NCBI GenBank assembly: GCA_934184665.1
Contig: CAKPSX010000005.1
Location: forward strand, 1-60,132
DNA from: an uncultured Clostridia bacterium
GTDB lineage: Bacteria; Bacillota; Clostridia; TANB77; CAG-508
Direction: 5' to 3'
Length of the DNA stretch: 60,132 bases
A program made the translations under genes and the position numbers. Below, piece after piece: positions 16,152 through 42,291 of this stretch. Under the pieces are notes generated by a model. The model ran no database searches and was not told the origin of the DNA. It worked only from the letters and a program-made list of their open reading frames with translations. The first letter of the stretch is position 1; every line of letters starts with the position of its first letter.

Positions 16152-16227
<76 letters not shown>

Positions 16228-17555: not shown

Positions 17556-17684
17556 GTGAGATTAATCTCTGTATGGAGAGCAAGCTCAATAAAAGCCTAT
17601 GAACCTTGTCAGATCCGGAAGGAAGCAGCAATAAGTAGATACTTTTATGTGGGTACTTGTTTTCCATAGAGAGATTAATTTCAT
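17556..17684 (+). ncRNA. ffs: Signal recognition particle RNA (short, 4.5S-like single hairpin)
   Basis: - Contains gtcagatccGGAAggaagcagc, matching the conserved SRP domain IV (GUCAGGUCCGGAAGGAAGCAGC).
- The flanks pair: gagattaatctctgtatgga with tccatagagagattaat, ataaaag with cttttat, and caag with cttg.
- It occupies the classic Firmicute position just upstream of dnaX-ybaB-recR.
- The ends are approximate. Confidence 0.8.
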
Positions 17685-27098: not shown

Positions 27099-29150
27099 AT
27101 GAACTATAAAGTAGAAGGTGCGATAAGAAGAAATAAAAAATATTTTATAATTTTTGCCATACTATGGCTATTTGCAGCCATAGTATTAATCATGCCTGCG
27201 GTACTTGGATTTAATGCTGGTATGAATGGACAAGATCCAATAGAAGTATTTGTAGGAGCAATGACAAATCCGATAAAAAGTCTAGGGCAGCTTGCAACAC
27301 AGCACTTATTTGCTCAGTATTTTAAAGCATTAGGTGGATTTACAATAATATTTGCATTATTTTTTGTAATAGGAATTGCAAGATCAGCACCTAAAAGCGA
27401 ATATACAGACTTTGAACATGGATCAAGTGATTGGAGCAAAAATGGAGAACAATATCAAGTATTAAGCAATAAAAAAGGAATAATATTAGCAGAAGACAAT
27501 TATTTACCTGTTGATAAAAGGGGTAATGTTAATGTATTAGTAGTCGGTGGTTCAGGTTCTGGTAAATCTGCATCATATTCAATACCAAATGCATACCAAA
27601 TGCTAGGGTCATACGTGTTTACAGACCCTAAAGGTGAACTTTATGACAAAACAGCAGGATTTTTAAAAGAAAATGGATATGACATAAAAGTATTAAATCT
27701 TGTAAAACCACAAAATAGTGATGGATATAATCCATTAATGCATATATCATCAGAAATAGATGTTGATGTTATTGCAAACACAATAGTAAAAGGTCAAAAA
27801 ACAGGAGATGGTGGGTCAGACCCATTCTGGGATGATTCAGCAGAAATGTTATTAAAAGCATTAATATATTATTTACTTGCAACAAGACCTGAAGAAGAAC
27901 AAAATTTAGCAAGTTGTGCTGAATTGGTTAGAGCAGCAAATTCGAATGGTGGAAGTAACTTACTTACTGAATTAATTAGTAAACTTCCTTATGACCACCC
28001 AGCAAGAATGAACTATAAATCAATTGAAATAGCACCAGAAAAAACATATAGTTCAATATTAAGTACATTACAATCAAAATTAGGAAAGTTCGACTCAAAG
28101 GAAATTGCAGAAGTAACATCAACAGATACAATAAATTTCGAAGATATTGGAAACAAGAAAACAGCGGTTTATGTTATATCTTCAGATACACATACAGCAT
28201 ATGATTTCTTATTAACAATATTTTTCTCACAAATGATACAACAATTATATAATTATGCAGATGATAATGGCGGAAAATTAAAAGTTCCAACATATTTTAT
28301 ATTAGACGAGTTCGCAAATATAGGTAAAGTGCCAGACTTTGATAAAAAAATATCAACATCAAGAAGTAGAAAAATATCATTTAGTGTAATATTACAAAAC
28401 TTAGACCAATTAGAGGCAGTATATGAAAAATCATATGAAACTATAATTGGTAACTGTGATACACACGTATTCTTGGGCAGTAACTCTTATAAAACTGTTG
28501 AATATTTCTCAAAAGCTCTTGGTGAAAAAACAATTGAAAGAGATAGTATATCAGTAAACAAAGATAGACAATATTTTAGAACTGGTATAAGTAAATCAGA
28601 CCAAGTTATGGCAAGAGCATTGATGACACCTGATGAATTAAGAAGAATGGATAATGATTTATGTATTATATTTGAAAAAGGTATAAGGCCTGTAAAAGCA
28701 AATAAATTCTATTATTTTAAACATAAAAAAATAGTAAATGCACTTGCTAAAACAGAAATGAGTCATAATGCTACAAGAGATTTAAAAAGAGGAGAATGGA
28801 GAAAATTCAATCCATATAATCCTTGGACAGAAGATAAATCAGAAAAAGAGGCACAAGACTTAAAGGTTGAATCTTTAGATGATTTATTTGAAGAAAAGCA
28901 AGATGAAAACACTGTAAAAGAAGTTAAAAAGGAAACAAAAAGGAAAACACCAGTAAAAAAAGAAGAACAAAAACAAGAAGAAATACAATCAATAGATAGT
29001 TTATTTGATGATGAATTAGAGTCAATTCCAACAGATTCAACAAATAATGTATCAAATGCAATTCAAGAGGAAGAAGAAGATTCTTATGATTTACAAAAAG
29101 AATTAGAGGCAAAGTTTGATGAATTATTTGGCCCAATTGATGATAATTAA
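27099..29150 (+). CDS. Type IV secretion coupling protein, VirD4/TraG family
   Basis: - Two N-terminal TM helices are present.
- Walker A is VVGGSGSGKSASYSIPN.
- The Walker B context is YFILDEFANIG.
- The C-terminal tail is acidic and Lys-rich. Confidence 0.8.
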   Translation: MNYKVEGAIRRNKKYFIIFAILWLFAAIVLIMPAVLGFNAGMNGQDPIEVFVGAMTNPIKSLGQLATQHLFAQYFKALGGFTIIFALFFVIGIARSAPKSEYTDFEHGSSDWSKNGEQYQVLSNKKGIILAEDNYLPVDKRGNVNVLVVGGSGSGKSASYSIPNAYQMLGSYVFTDPKGELYDKTAGFLKENGYDIKVLNLVKPQNSDGYNPLMHISSEIDVDVIANTIVKGQKTGDGGSDPFWDDSAEMLLKALIYYLLATRPEEEQNLASCAELVRAANSNGGSNLLTELISKLPYDHPARMNYKSIEIAPEKTYSSILSTLQSKLGKFDSKEIAEVTSTDTINFEDIGNKKTAVYVISSDTHTAYDFLLTIFFSQMIQQLYNYADDNGGKLKVPTYFILDEFANIGKVPDFDKKISTSRSRKISFSVILQNLDQLEAVYEKSYETIIGNCDTHVFLGSNSYKTVEYFSKALGEKTIERDSISVNKDRQYFRTGISKSDQVMARALMTPDELRRMDNDLCIIFEKGIRPVKANKFYYFKHKKIVNALAKTEMSHNATRDLKRGEWRKFNPYNPWTEDKSEKEAQDLKVESLDDLFEEKQDENTVKEVKKETKRKTPVKKEEQKQEEIQSIDSLFDDELESIPTDSTNNVSNAIQEEEEDSYDLQKELEAKFDELFGPIDDN

Positions 29151-34104: not shown

Positions 34105-34110
34105 AATAGA

Positions 34111-34138
34111 AGGACAATACAAGCGAGTATTGTCCTTT
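34111..34138 (+). terminator. Intrinsic terminator of the MMPL/YhgE-like operon
   Basis: aggacaatac (34111-34120) pairs with gtattgtcct (34127-34136). The loop is 6 nt and a short T tract follows. Confidence 0.65.
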
Positions 34139-34200
34139 AGTAATATATTAAATAAATCAGTAAATAGAAAAACTAACTATCACTGTAGTTTTACATAAAA

Positions 34201-34229
34201 TTGACATCGAAATAAAATCATGGTATAAT
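34201..34229 (+). promoter_or_regulatory. Near-consensus sigma-A-type promoter with extended -10, dedicated to the foreign CDS
   Basis: TTGACA (34201-34206), a 17-nt spacer, then TGgTATAAT (34221-34229). GGAGG at 34251-34255 lies 10 nt before ATG 34266. Confidence 0.7.
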
Positions 34230-34265
34230 TAAGGTACATCTTTATTATTTGGAGGGTTATATACC

Positions 34266-35237
34266 ATGACTACTAACAACAAGCTGAACAACGTCACCGT
34301 TATCACCTCTGGTTCTCTGGCTAAGTCCGGAGGCATCCAGACCGTGACCCGGACGCTCTTTGAGAGCGTGATGCCCATCCTCTACCTCGACAAGGAGGGC
34401 GAGGATAACGTTAAGATCAAGCTCAAGGATAGCAACAGCATCCTGTTCTCTGGGTTCGACGATCAGTTCGTCAATCTGGCCAATTGGGCCAAAGAAGAAG
34501 GCAAGAAGGTCGCAGTGTTCTGGCACTTTGCTTGTGCTAGTGAGGTCGATCCTGACCTGGGAGCTGCTTGGCGGTCGCTGTTACCTCTGCTCTGTGGAGG
34601 TAAAATCGATCTATTTGTAACTTGCAAGTACGGACAGCCGGAAATCGTTGAGAAACTGTTCGGAGTCAAGACTTTCTTGATTTTGAACAATTCCTTGGAG
34701 AATTCCTATAAGGATGAACCCAAGAACGGAATCGGAATCTTTTCTGGTTCTAGTGATTACTGGGTCAAGAATTTACGACCCAACCTGTATGCTTCTCTAA
34801 TGACAGAGAAGCAAGTGGATATTGTTCCTTATGAGGACAGTATCCGTAACATGGTTAAGACCATGGGCGTGGAAGACAGGGTAACTGGTGAATCTCGACT
34901 GGAACATTCGCTGTTCTTGAAGAGAATGGCCAGCTGTGAACTGGTTACTTACGTAACCTTCGCAGAAGGGGCACCAATTCTCCCCTTGGAGGCACTTAAC
35001 AATGGTGTTATCTGCCTGACTGGAGACAACCACAACTACTTCACAGATGATCAGCGTCTGCGGGACTTTCTGGTCTGCACCAGACCTGACGACCCCTATG
35101 CAATCTACAGGGCTATTGAGATAGCTCTGGAGAACAAGGACGAGATTCTGCATCGTTACTACCGCTGGAAGATGCGGTATGATGAGGAGCAGAAGCAGAA
35201 CTTCAACCTCTTTATTGAGGCGTTGAAGAATATGTAA
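34266..35237 (+). CDS. Compositionally foreign CDS (323 aa): compact GT-B fold, GT4-like glycosyltransferase candidate
   Basis: - It is a clean ORF with its own SD.
- The C-terminal half aligns by eye to the GT4 pattern: IGIFSGSSDYWVKN (G..S....KN/G), then ...VTYVTFAEGAPILPLEALNNGVICLTGDN with E234-x7-E242 (EX7E, nt 34965-34991).
- The N-terminal TVITSGSL..SGGIQT resembles the GT4 glycine-rich loop.
- Its G+C and codon choice are unlike every other gene in the window. Confidence 0.7.
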   Translation: MTTNNKLNNVTVITSGSLAKSGGIQTVTRTLFESVMPILYLDKEGEDNVKIKLKDSNSILFSGFDDQFVNLANWAKEEGKKVAVFWHFACASEVDPDLGAAWRSLLPLLCGGKIDLFVTCKYGQPEIVEKLFGVKTFLILNNSLENSYKDEPKNGIGIFSGSSDYWVKNLRPNLYASLMTEKQVDIVPYEDSIRNMVKTMGVEDRVTGESRLEHSLFLKRMASCELVTYVTFAEGAPILPLEALNNGVICLTGDNHNYFTDDQRLRDFLVCTRPDDPYAIYRAIEIALENKDEILHRYYRWKMRYDEEQKQNFNLFIEALKNM

Positions 35238-35242
35238 CCCTA

Positions 35243-35273
35243 AGAGAGAGGCTATTGCCTCTCTCTTTTTTTT
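35243..35273 (+). terminator. Textbook intrinsic terminator of the foreign CDS
   Basis: agagagaggc (35243-35252), loop tatt, gcctctctct (35257-35266), giving a perfect 10-bp stem. The T run extends to 35273 and begins 5 nt after the stop codon. Confidence 0.85.
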
Positions 35274-35405
35274 GAAGCAAAAACCGAAAAAGTTTTCGCA
35301 AAACTCTTGAAAAAAATAAAAAAATAGTATAGAATGTAAAAATATTAATTATAAACAAGTAGAAAAGATTTTTATTTTTTTATTTGTTTTTGGAAAGGAG
35401 AAAAT

Positions 35406-36470
35406 ATGAGGTTTGTACATATAGCAGATATGCACTTTGATTCACCATTTACAACATTATCAGATAAAGGAAATTTAGGCGAGATAAGAAGAATGGAACA
35501 AAGAAAAATATTTAAAAAAGTAATTGATTATATAAAAGAAAATAAAATAGAATTATTATTTATTTCAGGAGACTTATATGAACATCAATATATAAGAAAA
35601 TCTACAATAGAATATATAAATAATTTATTTAAAGAAATAAATAAAACAAAAATATTTATATCTCCAGGAAATCATGATCCATATTTAAAAAAATCATATT
35701 ATAATGATTTTTCATGGAATGAAAATGTACACATTTTTAATTCTCAAATTGAAAAAATTGAATTAAACAATTTAGATATATATGGATATGGCTTTGATGA
35801 TTTTTATTGCTCAGAATCGAATTTAGAGAGCCTTAAAATTGCTAATCCTGAAAAAACAAATATATTAATAATACATGGTACACTTGATGGTTCAACAGCA
35901 GAGGAAAGACAGTATAATCCTATGAGCAAAAGAATGCTGATAGAAAAAGGCTTTGACTATGTAGCTTTAGGGCATATACATAAAACTAATTTTACTCCAG
36001 AGGAAAGAATTATTTATCCAGGCTCAACAATTTCATTAGGTTTTGATGAGCTCGGAAAACATGGAATGGTAGTAGGAGATATTGAAAAAAATAAAATAGA
36101 ATTTATTGAATTAGATGAAACAGAGTTTGTAGAAAAAGAAATAAAATGTACAGAAATATTTTCAATTGAACAATTAATTGAAAAAATAAATGAAATAAAT
36201 ATAGAAAAAAATAAATTATATAAAATAATATTAACAGAAAAAAGAAATTTTGAAATAAATATATATGATATTTATAAATATGAATTAAATGAGAGAATAA
36301 TTAAAATAAAAAATAAAACAAAACCCAATTATGATATAGAAAAAATTTCAAAAGAAAAAACATTAAAAGGTTTATTTGTTAAAGAAATGATGGAAGAAAT
36401 AAAAAAGGAAATTTATGATGATGAAATTTTAGAAAATGCATTAGAAATTGGAATAGAAATATTAGAATAA
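35406..36470 (+). CDS. Metallophosphoesterase DNA-repair exonuclease (SbcD/YhaO-like)
   Basis: Contains MRFVHIADMHFDSPF, GDLYEH, GNHD, and GHIH calcineurin-like motifs. Confidence 0.8.
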   Translation: MRFVHIADMHFDSPFTTLSDKGNLGEIRRMEQRKIFKKVIDYIKENKIELLFISGDLYEHQYIRKSTIEYINNLFKEINKTKIFISPGNHDPYLKKSYYNDFSWNENVHIFNSQIEKIELNNLDIYGYGFDDFYCSESNLESLKIANPEKTNILIIHGTLDGSTAEERQYNPMSKRMLIEKGFDYVALGHIHKTNFTPEERIIYPGSTISLGFDELGKHGMVVGDIEKNKIEFIELDETEFVEKEIKCTEIFSIEQLIEKINEINIEKNKLYKIILTEKRNFEINIYDIYKYELNERIIKIKNKTKPNYDIEKISKEKTLKGLFVKEMMEEIKKEIYDDEILENALEIGIEILE

Positions 36471-38551
36471 TGGAGGGATTTATTTTGAAAATAAATGAAA
36501 TAAAAATAAATTCATATGGAAAATTAAAAAATAAAAAAATAAATTTAAATAAAAATATTAATATAATATATGGAGAAAATGAAAGTGGAAAATCAACATT
36601 ATTAAAATTTATTTTAAATATTTTTTATGGAACATCAAAAAATAAAAAAGGAAAAGAAATATCTGATTTTGAAAAATATAAGCCATGGAATTCAGAAGAA
36701 TTTTCTGGAAAATTATCATACGAATTAGATAATAAAAATAAATATGAAATATTTAGAGAATTTAATAAAAAAAATCCAATAATATTTAATGAAAAAGGAG
36801 AAGAAATTACAAAAGAATTTAATATAGATAAAAATAAAGGTAGTGAATTTTTTTACGAACAAACACAAATAAATGAGGAAATGTTTCTTGCAACATCAGT
36901 TTCATTACAACAAGAAGTAAAAATTAGCAAAAATGAGCAAAGTATGTTAGTACAAAAAATATCTAACTTGCTAGGGACAGGGGAAGATAAAATTTCATAT
37001 AAAAAAGCAATTGAAAAAATAAATAAAAAACAATTGGAAGAAGTTGGAACTGAAAGAAGTAGAGAAAAACCTATAAATATTCTTGAAAAAAATATAAAAG
37101 AAAATGAGGAAAAAATAAACCAATTAAAAAAATACCAAAATATTCAATATGAAATTGAAGAAGAAAAAAAAGAAATAAAAAATAAAATTAAAATAGAAAA
37201 AATAAAAAATAATTTATTAAAAGAAATAAAAAAAATAAAAGAAAAAAATAATTTGGAAAATGAAAAAATAAAAATAAAAGAAAATATAATAAAAGAAAAT
37301 AAAAATAAAATTCAAGAAATAAAAAATAAAATAGAAAAAAATGAAATAAAAATCGAACAAGAAAATAATAATAAAAAATATGAAGAAGAAAAAAATAAAA
37401 TAAAAAATAAAAACAAAAAAAATAAAATAATTTTTATTTTTTTAATAATTATTTCTTTGCTTTGGATAATATTTTCTCAAAAAATAATTAAAAATATATT
37501 TGCTAATTATTTAATATTAATTATTTTACCGATTTGTTTTATTGCTTGGAAAATAAGCAAAAATAAAAATAATAAAAAAATAAATAAAATAGAAAAAAAT
37601 AAAAATAATATTATAAAAGAATTAAATGAAGAAAAAAATACATTAATAAATGAAATAAAAATAATAGAAAAAAATTCCAATGATTTATTAAATGAAATAA
37701 ATAAAATAAAAAAAGAAAACGAAAATATAAAAATATTAGAAAAACAAAAAATAATAAATAATTATTTTTATGACATGAAAAAAATAGAATTAAATTCTAA
37801 TCAAAAAAACAATAATAATTATTTATTTAACTCTGAAAATAATAATTTAATATTTAATTTCGAAAATTCAGAAAATAATTTAAAAAATATAGAAAATAAA
37901 ATTAATTTATTATTAAATTCGGAAAAAATAGAAAACGAATTAAATTCTTCAGAAAATATAATAAATAATTTAAAAATGGAAATAAATAAAATAGAATTAA
38001 AAAAAGAAAATATTGAACCATTACTTGATGAATTATCAAATATTGAAGAAAAATTATATTCACAAAAAGAAGAATATAAAAATTTACAAAAAATTAATAC
38101 TAGTATAGAATTAGCAAAAAAAATATTAGAAAGAGCATATGAAAAAATGAAAGATAGTGTTAGTCCGATATTCACAAATAAATTATCAGAAAATATATCT
38201 GAAATAACAAATAAAAAATATACTAATATTTATTTTGGAGATGAACAGGGATTAACAGTTGAACTTGAAAATGGAAATTATGTTCCAGTAGAAAGATTAA
38301 GCATTGGAACAATTGACCAATTATATTTATCACTTAGGCTAGCAATGTTAGATGAGATTTCAAAGGAAAAAGTACCTATTATTTTAGATGAGGCATTTGC
38401 TTATTATGACAATGAAAGATTAGAAAATATATTAAAATATTTATATACGAAATTTAGTGATAGACAACTTATAATATTAAGTTGTACAAAAAGAGAAAAA
38501 GAAATCCTAGAAAAACAAAATATAGAATTTAATTTTGTAGAGTTAAATTAA
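36470..38551 (+). CDS. AAA/SMC-like ATPase partner of the exonuclease (SbcC/YhaN-like) with central TM hairpin
   Basis: - Walker A is YGENESGKSTLLKFI.
- A very long K/N/I/E coiled-coil region is interrupted by two hydrophobic helices (IIFIFLIIISLLWIIF, ILIILPICFIAW).
- The C-terminus has LSIGTIDQLYLSLRLA and IILDEAF (signature and Walker B).
- The real start is probably TTG 36485 (MKINEIKINSYGKL), 8 nt after GGAGG at 36472-36476. Confidence 0.75.
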   Translation: MEGFILKINEIKINSYGKLKNKKINLNKNINIIYGENESGKSTLLKFILNIFYGTSKNKKGKEISDFEKYKPWNSEEFSGKLSYELDNKNKYEIFREFNKKNPIIFNEKGEEITKEFNIDKNKGSEFFYEQTQINEEMFLATSVSLQQEVKISKNEQSMLVQKISNLLGTGEDKISYKKAIEKINKKQLEEVGTERSREKPINILEKNIKENEEKINQLKKYQNIQYEIEEEKKEIKNKIKIEKIKNNLLKEIKKIKEKNNLENEKIKIKENIIKENKNKIQEIKNKIEKNEIKIEQENNNKKYEEEKNKIKNKNKKNKIIFIFLIIISLLWIIFSQKIIKNIFANYLILIILPICFIAWKISKNKNNKKINKIEKNKNNIIKELNEEKNTLINEIKIIEKNSNDLLNEINKIKKENENIKILEKQKIINNYFYDMKKIELNSNQKNNNNYLFNSENNNLIFNFENSENNLKNIENKINLLLNSEKIENELNSSENIINNLKMEINKIELKKENIEPLLDELSNIEEKLYSQKEEYKNLQKINTSIELAKKILERAYEKMKDSVSPIFTNKLSENISEITNKKYTNIYFGDEQGLTVELENGNYVPVERLSIGTIDQLYLSLRLAMLDEISKEKVPIILDEAFAYYDNERLENILKYLYTKFSDRQLIILSCTKREKEILEKQNIEFNFVELN

Positions 38552-38602: not shown

Positions 38603-38696
38603 AATTATTTGAATCCAAAAAACTTAAAAAAAATATTTAAAAATATGGATATATATGTTATAATTGTATTTGATTAGTATTTGGAGGGAAATTATA

Positions 38697-39059
38697 ATGA
38701 ATAAGATGCCTAAAAAAACCAAGAATATCATTAAGGAGTTCGTAAAGCAAATAAATAATTTACTAGGGGATAGAATAAAAAAAGTTATTTTATATGGTTC
38801 TTATGCAAGAGGAGATTATAAGGATAATTCTGACATTGATATTATGATACTTACGGATTTAACAGATGAAGAAATAATTGAGTATAGAGAACAAGTGTCC
38901 AATATTGCATTTGATATAGAATTTGAAAATGATTTTGACATAACTATATCACCATTGATAAAAAATATAAATAAATTTGAATTTTGGAAAAATGTGTTAC
39001 CATTTTATATGAATATTCAAAAAGAGGGAGTGATTTTAAGTGAATCAAAAACTATCTAA
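38697..39059 (+). CDS. Minimal nucleotidyltransferase (MNT) antitoxin of a HEPN/MNT module
   Basis: Contains the LYGSYARGDYKDNSDIDIMILTD (GS..RG......SDxD) Pol-beta-type NTase motif. ATG 38697 follows ttggaggg. Confidence 0.85.
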   Translation: MNKMPKKTKNIIKEFVKQINNLLGDRIKKVILYGSYARGDYKDNSDIDIMILTDLTDEEIIEYREQVSNIAFDIEFENDFDITISPLIKNINKFEFWKNVLPFYMNIQKEGVILSESKTI

Positions 39060-39435
39060 AGATTTAGCAATACATAGACTTGAACAAGCAAGAGAAGATT
39101 TAGAAGCAGGTAAATTATTGTATGATAAAAATTTTTATAAATCTGCAAACAATAGAGCATATTATTCAATATTTCACAGTATAAAATCTATCCTTGCATT
39201 AGAGAGAATTGATTTTAAAAAGCATAAAGATGTGCTAGCATATTTTAATAAAAACTATATTAATAATGAAATTTTTCCTAAAACAATGGGTAGGAAAATC
39301 CATAGTGCGAGTTCTATGAGAGAAGATAGTGATTATGATGATGAGTTTATAGTGGATGCTAGTAAAACTAAGGAACAATTAAATACAGCAGAAGAGCTTA
39401 TTGATTTAGTTGAAAAATATATAGAAAATAATTAA
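39040..39435 (+). CDS. HEPN-domain protein (putative toxin of the HEPN/MNT module)
   Basis: It is helical and contains RAYYSIFH (R-x6-H). The GTG start overlaps the MNT gene by 20 nt, the typical bicistronic arrangement. Confidence 0.75.
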
Positions 39436-41826: not shown

Positions 41827-42291
41827 ATGAAGAAGAAGAAATTCATGATGATGGTGATGGCAGCGATTATGCTGCTGAGTGTTGCTTGTACAGCAAGTGC
41901 AAGCTGCCAGGTACAGAAGCCAATTAAGGTATACTATAATGGCATAGCAATTAACTTCCCAGATCAACAACCTATGATTGTCAGTGGTAGGACTATGGTT
42001 CCTGTTCGTGCAATCGCTGAAGCTCTTGATTATGATGTTCTATGGATTGCAAAGGACAACGAAGTGCAGCTTTATCAGCACTTAGGAGAAGGGTTTGTTT
42101 TTTGGAAGATAGGTGAAAACACTTATCGGACTAATCACGATAGTATAGTTGATGCAGGATGTGCACCAATTGTCCTGAATGGGCGTACCATGGTGCCCAT
42201 CAGATTCGTGGCGGAACAGCTCTCCAGCTTAAATGTAGAGTTTGTACAACAAAAATATCAAGATTTCGTCTTCTTAAACGAGAAGGATTAA
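41827..42291 (+). CDS. Secreted protein with two copper-amine-oxidase N-terminal-like (stalk) repeats
   Basis: A signal peptide is present (MKKKKFMMMVMAAIMLLSVACTASA). There are two copies of the ...P.IV.GRTMVP.R..AE.L... motif. G+C is elevated (25/60 in each of the first two 60-nt blocks by hand count). Confidence 0.75.
   Translation: MKKKKFMMMVMAAIMLLSVACTASASCQVQKPIKVYYNGIAINFPDQQPMIVSGRTMVPVRAIAEALDYDVLWIAKDNEVQLYQHLGEGFVFWKIGENTYRTNHDSIVDAGCAPIVLNGRTMVPIRFVAEQLSSLNVEFVQQKYQDFVFLNEKD

Follow-up and report, generated by a model that had tools for sequence, protein, structure and literature searches.

The stretch of DNA analyzed here (the window) is 60,132 nucleotides long and belongs to contig CAKPSX010000005.1 of an uncultured gut Clostridia bacterium (assembly GCA_934184665.1) whose genome has a low G+C content (27%; window mean, 27.7%). 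On its forward strand, positions 34266-35237 hold a GC-rich outlier, a coding sequence (CDS) for a 323-residue protein predicted to be a glycosyltransferase (GT) of the GT-B, GT4-like type. A YhgE-like coiled-coil gene precedes it, and an operon encoding a Metallophos protein (SbcD/YhaO-like) and an AAA_27 protein (SbcC/YhaN-like) follows. Together with an upstream motif, a promoter, a Shine-Dalgarno sequence and a terminator, the CDS forms a stand-alone single-gene expression cassette (34184-35275). The composition of this cassette, its alleles in related contigs (L numbers) and the persistence of its G+C excess are the subject of this work.

The 5' edge of homology among cassette alleles is the motif TGTAGTTTTACA(TAA) (34184..34195, forward strand): the window and L018 are unrelated 5' of it and homologous from the motif onward. 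The motif lies just 5' of the -35 box, carries a TGTA...TACA inverted repeat and is kept across loci (L018, L020, L005, L003, and L007); judged from its sequence, it could be an operator or a UP-like element. Cores resembling TTTTACATAA are found 5' of cassettes in other contexts as well, those of L020, L005, L003, and L007. The predicted sigma-A-type promoter (34201..34229, forward strand) matches the consensus at 12 of 12 positions (TTGACA, a 17-nt spacer, and TGgTATAAT with an extended -10) and is conserved in strains L001 and L010-L012. About 10 nt before the ATG, a Shine-Dalgarno sequence, GGAGGG, can be read at 34251..34256 (forward strand), and GGAGG stands 5' of the start codon in most orthologues. 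The terminator scan placed an intrinsic terminator with an 11-bp stem, 6 G-C pairs and a T-run at 35242..35275 (forward strand), which is the 3' edge of the hypervariable cassette. Its hairpin core, GAGGC-aatt-GCCTC, and a CCYYAA after the stop codon are common to cassettes at other loci. Since CCYYAA, the hairpin core and TTTTACATAA are shared by several loci, promoter, CDS, and terminator seem to have moved as one unit.

Both sides of the cassette belong to the host context. Upstream, the hairpin ending the YhgE-like gene (34110..34137) is AT rich like the host and lies outside the cassette. Downstream, a pattern match detected a perfect palindrome, CGAAAAAGTTTTCG (35285..35298, forward strand), a putative LexA (Cheo) box of the Firmicutes type to which LexA may bind, and the promoter scan placed the promoter of the SbcD/YhaO-like operon at 35307..35335 (forward strand). 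Unlike the cassette, the region 35285-35335 is 96 to 100% identical between strains. The first-pass annotation of the window, made from the letters alone, had seen neither mobility genes nor flanking direct repeats at this CDS, and a dedicated check found no mobility genes and no significant direct repeats around the cassette. The nearest tRNA gene starts at 16152, and no tRNA target adjoins the cassette, so that the integrase or transposase, tRNA site and repeats of an acquired islet are all lacking. Rfam matched only two RNA genes in the 60 kb, tRNA-Arg(CCT) (16152-16227) and the bacterial small signal recognition particle (SRP) RNA (17573-17670). An RNA element at the cassette was rejected because both matches lie elsewhere in the window. 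An integron gene cassette was likewise rejected, given the cassette's own 12/12 promoter, its plain intrinsic terminator with a T-run and the lack of an integron integrase among the annotated neighbors.

The composition of the CDS departs from that of the host. Its G+C content is 0.480 and its G+C content at third codon positions (GC3) is 0.608, compared with 0.279 +/- 0.041 and 0.154 +/- 0.057, respectively, in the other open reading frames (ORFs) of the window (n = 47, >=100 amino acids [aa]), which corresponds to z scores of 4.9 and 8.0. Leave-one-out codon adaptation is 0.195 in the GT CDS, against 0.68 +/- 0.085 in the other ORFs (z = -5.7), and the tetranucleotide distance has a z score of 5.6; by GC3, codon adaptation and tetranucleotides, the gene has the atypical composition of a recently acquired islet. 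These are the statistics that the first-pass annotation had called for, and they place the CDS outside the host distribution. First codon positions are also enriched (GC1 of 0.50, against 0.40 in the host), the K/(K+R) ratio is 0.62 (host, 0.78), and the AT skew changes sign, from +0.2 to +0.3 elsewhere in the window to -0.04 at the CDS. The hand counts of G+C that had first drawn attention to the gene (27/60 and 37/60 in its first two 60-nt blocks and 16/60 after the upstream stop codon) were reproduced exactly, as was the estimate of about 20 AAG against 3 AAA lysine codons, the counts being 20 and 3. Codon counts also bore out its preference for CTG (Leu), ATC (Ile), GAG (Glu) and AAC (Asn), where the host uses TTA, ATA, GAA and AAT. 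The change of composition is as abrupt as had been described: G+C rises at the ATG and drops after the stop codon and the terminator hairpin.

Two of the initial observations needed qualification. The CDS had been called the strongest non-host signal in the 60 kb; it is indeed an extreme outlier, to which a second, weaker one must be added at 41827-42291 (forward strand, 154 aa, GC of 0.415, GC3 of 0.42, codon adaptation of 0.35). The protein encoded there has a signal-peptide-like N terminus and a Cu_amine_oxidN1 domain (PF07833), and its gene ranks second in divergence when the window is compared with strain L010 (97.4% aa identity). Three antisense ORFs (34257-34526, 34463-34690, and 34797-35153), taken as a further sign of an insert, exist. 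However, the antisense open frame of 145 codons is no longer than in synonymous-codon shuffles of the GT gene (143 +/- 36), and orthologues behave likewise. Because of this, the antisense ORFs are a passive by-product of composition and provide no independent evidence; an antisense or overlapping gene was rejected on the same grounds, the length not being kept across orthologues.

At the protein level, similarity to known families is faint in sequence and clear in the predicted fold. The window protein matches PF00534 (Glycos_transf_1) with 21.0 bits (E = 2.6e-4) and does not reach the gathering cutoff of 26.4, which some family members pass: P0044 scores 29.1 bits, and P0021, P0028, and P0029 have precomputed PF00534 assignments. 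No PDB sequence was matched at E <= 0.01 by phmmer or by the family profile, and NCBIfam and PHROGs gave nothing significant for the window protein. An AlphaFold2 (AF2) model built from a 27-sequence family alignment has a mean predicted local distance difference test (pLDDT) score of 91.9 and a predicted template modeling (pTM) score of 0.87. Alternating beta-alpha elements form two Rossmann-like domains (residues 10-138 and 156-290) separated by a cleft, as in GT-B enzymes, and are followed by a C-terminal helix (291-322). A Foldseek search of the PDB with this model gave 381 matches at E <= 1e-3, and the best 50 of the 381 are all glycosyltransferases; BshA, SenB, MshA, GtfA, and WaaG were matched with a probability of 1.0 and template modeling (TM) scores of up to 0.73. 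The E-x7-E signature, E234-x7-E242 within EGAPILPLEALNNG in the C-terminal domain, is invariant in 27/27 aligned members, as are the motifs SGGIQTVT, FSGFD, FWHF, and GSSDYWVKN. In more distant relatives, the module makes up the C-terminal half of 600- to 760-aa methyltransferase-GT or GT32-GT glycan enzymes.

From fold and motif, the protein is predicted to be a cytoplasmic glycosyltransferase of the compact GT-B, GT4-like type, and its family is small and has no name; by analogy, it would be a retaining, nucleotide-sugar-dependent enzyme. With the GT4 enzymes BshA (PDB IDs 5D00 and 3MBO), MshA (3C4Q), and SenB (8JJT and 8RZ3), the model shares the two-Rossmann GT-B fold, the C-terminal helix that crosses back (TM scores of 0.64 to 0.73, Foldseek probability of 1.0) and E-x7-E in the C-terminal domain, and SenB, with 321 aa, is close to it in compact size. 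Nevertheless, identity in the structural alignments is only 12 to 16%, and no bsh, msh, or sen partner genes lie near the GT gene. A BshA, MshA or SenB orthologue was rejected because no PDB sequence is matched, the neighbors are MMPL, YhgE-like, SbcD/SbcC-like and MNT/HEPN genes, and the contexts of relatives vary. A component of a known antiphage defense system was also rejected, as no PADLOC-DB model matched the window protein, P0008, or P0027 at E <= 0.01.

The cassette is a long-standing resident of its site. Public assemblies contain an exact match to the protein and a 90%-identity cluster with 73 member sequences. In contigs of three ENA samples (L010-L012; 98.8 to 99.0% identical to the window over 12 to 17 kb) and in the Logan contig L001 (98.4% identical over 2.3 kb), the gene occupies the same site. 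In L018 and L019, an allele with 86% identity precedes an sbcD gene whose product is 99 to 100% identical in amino acids to that of the window, and L020 carries a 70%-identical allele after the end of a YhgE gene whose last 24 residues are identical to the window's. At least six assemblies (L001, L010-L012, L018, and L020) have the gene at this site, where the alleles have diverged to synonymous distances (dS) of 0.2 to 2.9. A recently acquired gene should be absent from relatives or have a near-identical donor copy; here, all related contigs covering the site carry the gene. Because independent assemblies place the gene at the same site, it is neither a very recent arrival nor engineered nor an assembly chimera. 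The first-pass annotation had proposed that the gene came very recently from a distant donor or was recoded or introduced, and it had wished to see a chimeric assembly excluded. The non-host composition on which the donor was postulated is real, and a GC-richer foreign origin is plausible, but a very recent arrival is contradicted by the presence of the same gene, with the same kind of composition, at the same site in related contigs, an outcome that the annotation itself had named as decisive. Recoding is contradicted by natural, diverged, mosaic alleles in many independent public metagenomes, and a chimera is contradicted by the recovery of both junctions in independent ENA and Logan assemblies.

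The alleles at this site differ far more than their surroundings do. Between the window and L018, a contig of the same species, dS is 0.83 in the GT gene and 0.03 in the adjacent sbcD; nucleotide identity ranges from 0.68 to 0.96 within the cassette and from 0.96 to 1.00 from position 35266 on, so that divergence is confined to the cassette. Compared with L010, the window has a synonymous identity of 0.89 in the GT gene, 0.97 in both immediate neighbors, and ~1.00 farther out. The L010 allele is a mosaic with L018-like tracts at ~34611-34769 and ~34941-35081, and a runs test gave 33 runs, compared with 54.3 +/- 4.2 expected (P < 1e-4). The cassette is a hypervariable, recombining locus with mosaic alleles. 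The ratio of nonsynonymous to synonymous divergence (dN/dS) is 0.05 to 0.16 in all GT comparisons, and the enzyme is therefore kept functional by purifying selection.

The family is small and rare, as searches of 5.8 billion clusters, 1.84 billion representatives, and 185,579 species genomes indicate. It comprises 29 of the 5.8 billion 90%-identity clusters at E <= 1e-3, 9 close full-length sequences among the representatives and members in 5 of the species genomes, all of uncultured gut Clostridia and at several different loci. No relatives were found among IMG/VR viral contigs, INPHARED phages or PLSDB plasmids; on this basis, and for want of flanking repeats, a mobile-element vehicle was rejected. 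The G+C excess is a property of the family, since in at least 12 lineages the gene exceeds its flanks by 0.08 to 0.25. Among relatives with 43 to 86% identity, found in other low-GC Clostridia and at other loci, most have a G+C content 10 to 25 points above that of their flanks. Gene and flank values are 0.47 and 0.22 in L018; 0.40 and 0.22 in L020; 0.45 and 0.28 in L002, L006 and L013; 0.465 and 0.30 in L014; 0.47 and 0.33 in L007; 0.39 and 0.28 in L008; 0.41 and 0.31 in L009; and 0.42 and 0.30 in L021. The alleles of L005, L015, L003 and L025 are nearly host-like in G+C. The closest alleles all occur in low-GC contexts. Synteny is kept within three clades, namely, the window with L018 and L020; L002 with L014, beside dinB; and L003 with L008 and L009, whose flanking genes are 58 to 94% identical in amino acids. 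In hosts of intermediate G+C, the gene follows its host (L026, gene 0.50 and host 0.51; L027, gene 0.495 and host 0.45 to 0.49), and both copies fall outside the low-GC-host clade of a neighbor-joining tree. That relatives match hosts of 45 to 51% G+C suggests a mid-GC origin of the family.

Two further observations concern relatives of the cassette. In L003 (11060-11488, reverse strand), L008 (~11075), and L009 (11130-11657, reverse strand), a small convergent gene of 142 to 175 aa directly follows the GT gene. It has no Pfam match, its GC3 is 0.44 in L003 and 0.68 in L009, and its products are 29 to 52% identical between species, making it a second hypervariable, GC-rich gene of the islet. 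Positions 1-649 of L016 hold a low-GC (0.31) partial GT copy at a contig end, the rest of the contig having a G+C content of 0.42 to 0.51 and the coverage being 2.2x; such a copy points to a chimeric assembly or else to transfer in the reverse direction.

Why has the G+C excess persisted? We lean, with some reserve, toward an old cassette of foreign type whose alleles are exchanged at a hypervariable locus and whose amelioration is incomplete or offset by imports. The mid-GC composition would then be an old property of the family's allele pool. The lineage would most likely stem from Clostridia of higher G+C content, in which relatives have the composition of their hosts, although the direction of transfer is itself deduced, and the cassette would since have resided in several low-GC lineages through speciation. 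Homologous recombination, with breaks both at the cassette and within it, would swap deeply diverged alleles and so yield mosaics, while purifying selection keeps the enzyme. The hypervariability probably serves the variation of a cell-surface or small-molecule glycan. The observed-to-expected CpG ratio is 0.70 to 0.73 in GC-rich alleles (0.50 at codon positions 2-3), with correspondingly rare NCG codons, compared with 0.38 to 0.44 in low-GC hosts and 1.0 to 1.2 in mid-GC hosts and their GT copies. The alleles have therefore long been shaped by a low-GC-type environment while keeping a high G+C content; a dinucleotide signature between those of low-GC and mid-GC hosts does not discriminate between this account and the biased-conversion model considered below.

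Several results weigh against an old, incompletely ameliorated cassette. At conserved residues, third positions match at chance level once amino acid identity is 60% or less, and G/C-ending positions are uncorrelated between subclades and even in the syntenic pairs L008-L009 and L018-L020 (phi ~0). On simple decay, the ancestor must then have had a GC3 of about 0.94 to 1.0, unless there were several independent imports; stated more generally, the uncorrelated positions call for either independent imports from an unsampled pool or maintenance of G+C in situ. A pure-decay model on 2-by-2 tables of strong (G or C; S) and weak (A or T; W) bases always fits one pair, as it has three parameters for three degrees of freedom, and its sole informative output is the implied ancestral GC3 (0.56 to 1.0). 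Moreover, GC1 follows GC3 nearly along the equilibrium slope, whereas neutral amelioration predicts a lag. In none of the three collections did a mid-GC genome carry an allele more than 51% identical to that of the window, no phage, plasmid or viral-contig relative stands as a donor, and no mobility genes or target duplications account for the cassette at different loci. No empty site, that is, an intact YhgE-sbcD junction, was seen among the related contigs covering the site in a scan that was not exhaustive, and the window protein stays under the Pfam gathering score for its family.

Maintenance in situ could come from GC-biased gene conversion (gBGC), a possible though doubtful alternative in which heteroduplexes of diverged alleles at a recombination hot spot are repaired toward G/C and the G+C content of the cassette is thereby held up. 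Flanks that are identical between strains offer no mismatches, so that conversion would act within the polymorphic cassette alone, and indeed the GC-rich segment is the polymorphic segment. Recombination and mosaicism are demonstrated in the cassette, and G+C rises at all codon positions, GC1+GC2 correlating with GC3 across the family (rho of 0.83); this joint rise fits either an evolutionary background richer in G+C or a force that, like gBGC, acts irrespective of position. GC3 stays at 0.4 to 0.6 despite saturated synonymous sites and reshuffled S positions, the partial CpG depletion of the host type speaks for long residence, and other fast-diverging genes of these genomes are also the GC-richest. 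Tentatively, then, gBGC tied to interallelic recombination may be what keeps the allele pool at a GC3 of ~0.4 to 0.6, compared with ~0.15 in other genes. At face value, the balance of allele differences (14 S>W and 18 W>S) points the same way; ~90% S>W would be expected (binomial P = 3e-10), but the polarization is parsimony biased and the differences were imported. Since the polarization, when applied to the flanks as a control with saturated AT-rich outgroups, was itself strongly biased toward W>S, and recombination confounds the counts, we take them only as symmetric differences between alleles. In bacteria, recombining genes have a higher GC3, mostly through nonoptimal GC-ending codons (Lassalle et al. 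2015, PMC4450053), and both the direction and the kind of codon agree with what is seen here. The published effect is, however, an average difference between recombining and nonrecombining core genes, while here a single accessory gene differs by 0.45 in GC3, which we judge very large for such an effect. The polymorphic promoter and untranslated region (UTR) of the cassette also remain AT rich, the alleles of L005, L003, and L025 are host-like, and codon dialects vary by lineage (NCG share of 0.25 in L007 and 0.09 in the window), which hints at different histories.

It is improbable that host-rare GC-ending codons tune translation or mRNA stability, a mirror image of the bldA/TTA control in Streptomyces. 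Such codon control or mRNA-level selection would suit a shift that begins exactly at the ATG and stops at the stop codon, the avoidance of ATA, TTA, CCA, and TCA in nearly all lineages, GC3-poor alleles included, and a very strong predicted promoter, which suggests that expression matters. What makes codon-level regulation unlikely is that GC3 does not rise alone: GC1, GC2, and amino acid composition move with it (K/(K+R) as given above). The preferred codons also vary by lineage (AAG in 20/23 lysine codons in the window, 9/25 in L002, and 4/15 in L009), and in host-like alleles, the avoidance of A-ending codons may reflect an orientation opposite to that of neighboring genes. Least credible of all is the initial reading, whether as a very recent distant acquisition, as an insert that was engineered or recoded, or as a chimeric assembly. 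The extreme contrast in composition, the sharp boundaries and codons that look superficially "optimized" (rich in CTG, AAG, GAG, and AAC and poor in NCG) invite it, but it is opposed by the same junctions in ENA and Logan assemblies of several samples, the 73-member cluster, natural mosaic alleles spanning the dS range given above, and diverged orthologues that are syntenic across species in three clades.

An old, recombining cassette resembles two known kinds of loci without fully belonging to either. In the model of Lawrence and Ochman, compositionally atypical, horizontally acquired genes and islets are said to undergo amelioration. Like such genes, the GT cassette is atypical in G+C, GC3, codon usage, and oligonucleotide signature, its family is patchy by taxon with differing insertion sites, and its intermediate CpG content suggests partial adaptation to the host. 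Unlike them, it has no integrase, tRNA site or direct repeats and is fixed in all sampled relatives, its excess survives speciation and saturated synonymous divergence, and GC1 shows no lag. Hypervariable surface-glycan loci (O-antigen, capsule, and gtr-type genes) also have an atypical G+C content and replace alleles via conserved flanks; they are usually AT-richer than their genomes. As in these loci, the cassette encodes a glycosyltransferase, diverges deeply between near-identical flanks and has mosaic alleles with purifying selection within each, and its relatives adjoin gtrA and a GT2 gene in one case and rmlABCD in another. In contrast to them, it is a single gene with no flippase, polymerase, or sugar-synthesis partner in the window, and it is GC-richer than its genome.

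The neighborhoods of the family show one recurrent theme. DNA repair or SOS-type genes adjoin the GT gene in ~5 of 12 distinct contexts: sbcD/sbcC-like genes in the window; dinB downstream in L002 and L014, followed by ruvAB in L002; dinB downstream on the P0047 contig; a divergent dinB in L026; and recJ two genes away in L027. Roughly estimated, such adjacency is commoner than chance would predict. The dinB promoters 3' of the GT gene in L002 and L014 carry CGAACTAATGTTTT. Other contexts include glycan metabolism, namely rmlABCD in L021 and gtrA with a GT2 gene in L024, and sporulation genes (sigE and spoIIGA in L007).

Downstream of the cassette in the window, the gene for the SbcC/YhaN-like AAA_27/AAA_23 protein (36470-38551, forward strand) has a G+C content of 0.163, falling to 11 to 12% at 37001-38000, and its product has a low-complexity coiled coil of K, N, E, and I. 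The length of the protein differs between strains (693 aa in the window, 688 aa in L011, and 554 aa in L010). Directly after it, an overlapping MNT (NTP_transf_2) and HEPN pair (38664-39435, forward strand) forms a module typical of toxin-antitoxin or defense systems and matches the PADLOC candidate system PDC-S09. Upstream of the cassette, a VirD4/TraG-type coupling protein (27099-29150, forward strand; T4SS-DNA_transf, TrwB_AAD_bind, and TraG-D_C) is conserved in L010-L012, with no other conjugation genes among its annotated neighbors.

Our analysis defines an unnamed family of compact, GT4-like glycosyltransferases that behaves as a hypervariable single-gene cassette, which makes the enzyme a candidate determinant, at the level of strains, of a surface or small-molecule glycan. 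GT4-like enzymes and accessory genes of atypical composition are both familiar; what sets this one apart is that an excess of G+C persists across the family at a recombination hot spot. As the GT gene shows by remaining 20 points above its host in G+C through both speciation and saturated synonymous turnover, a markedly foreign composition does not have to imply recent arrival. Its recurrence beside sbcDC, dinB, and recJ may offer a functional lead toward the SOS response or DNA repair. Should biased gene conversion, and not an unsampled donor pool, hold the excess, the cassette would carry, to our knowledge, the most extreme local gBGC footprint in a bacterium. It would then offer a natural system in which to measure conversion bias under strong AT mutational pressure and, for bacteria, an exceptionally clean test of what counteracts mutation toward AT.

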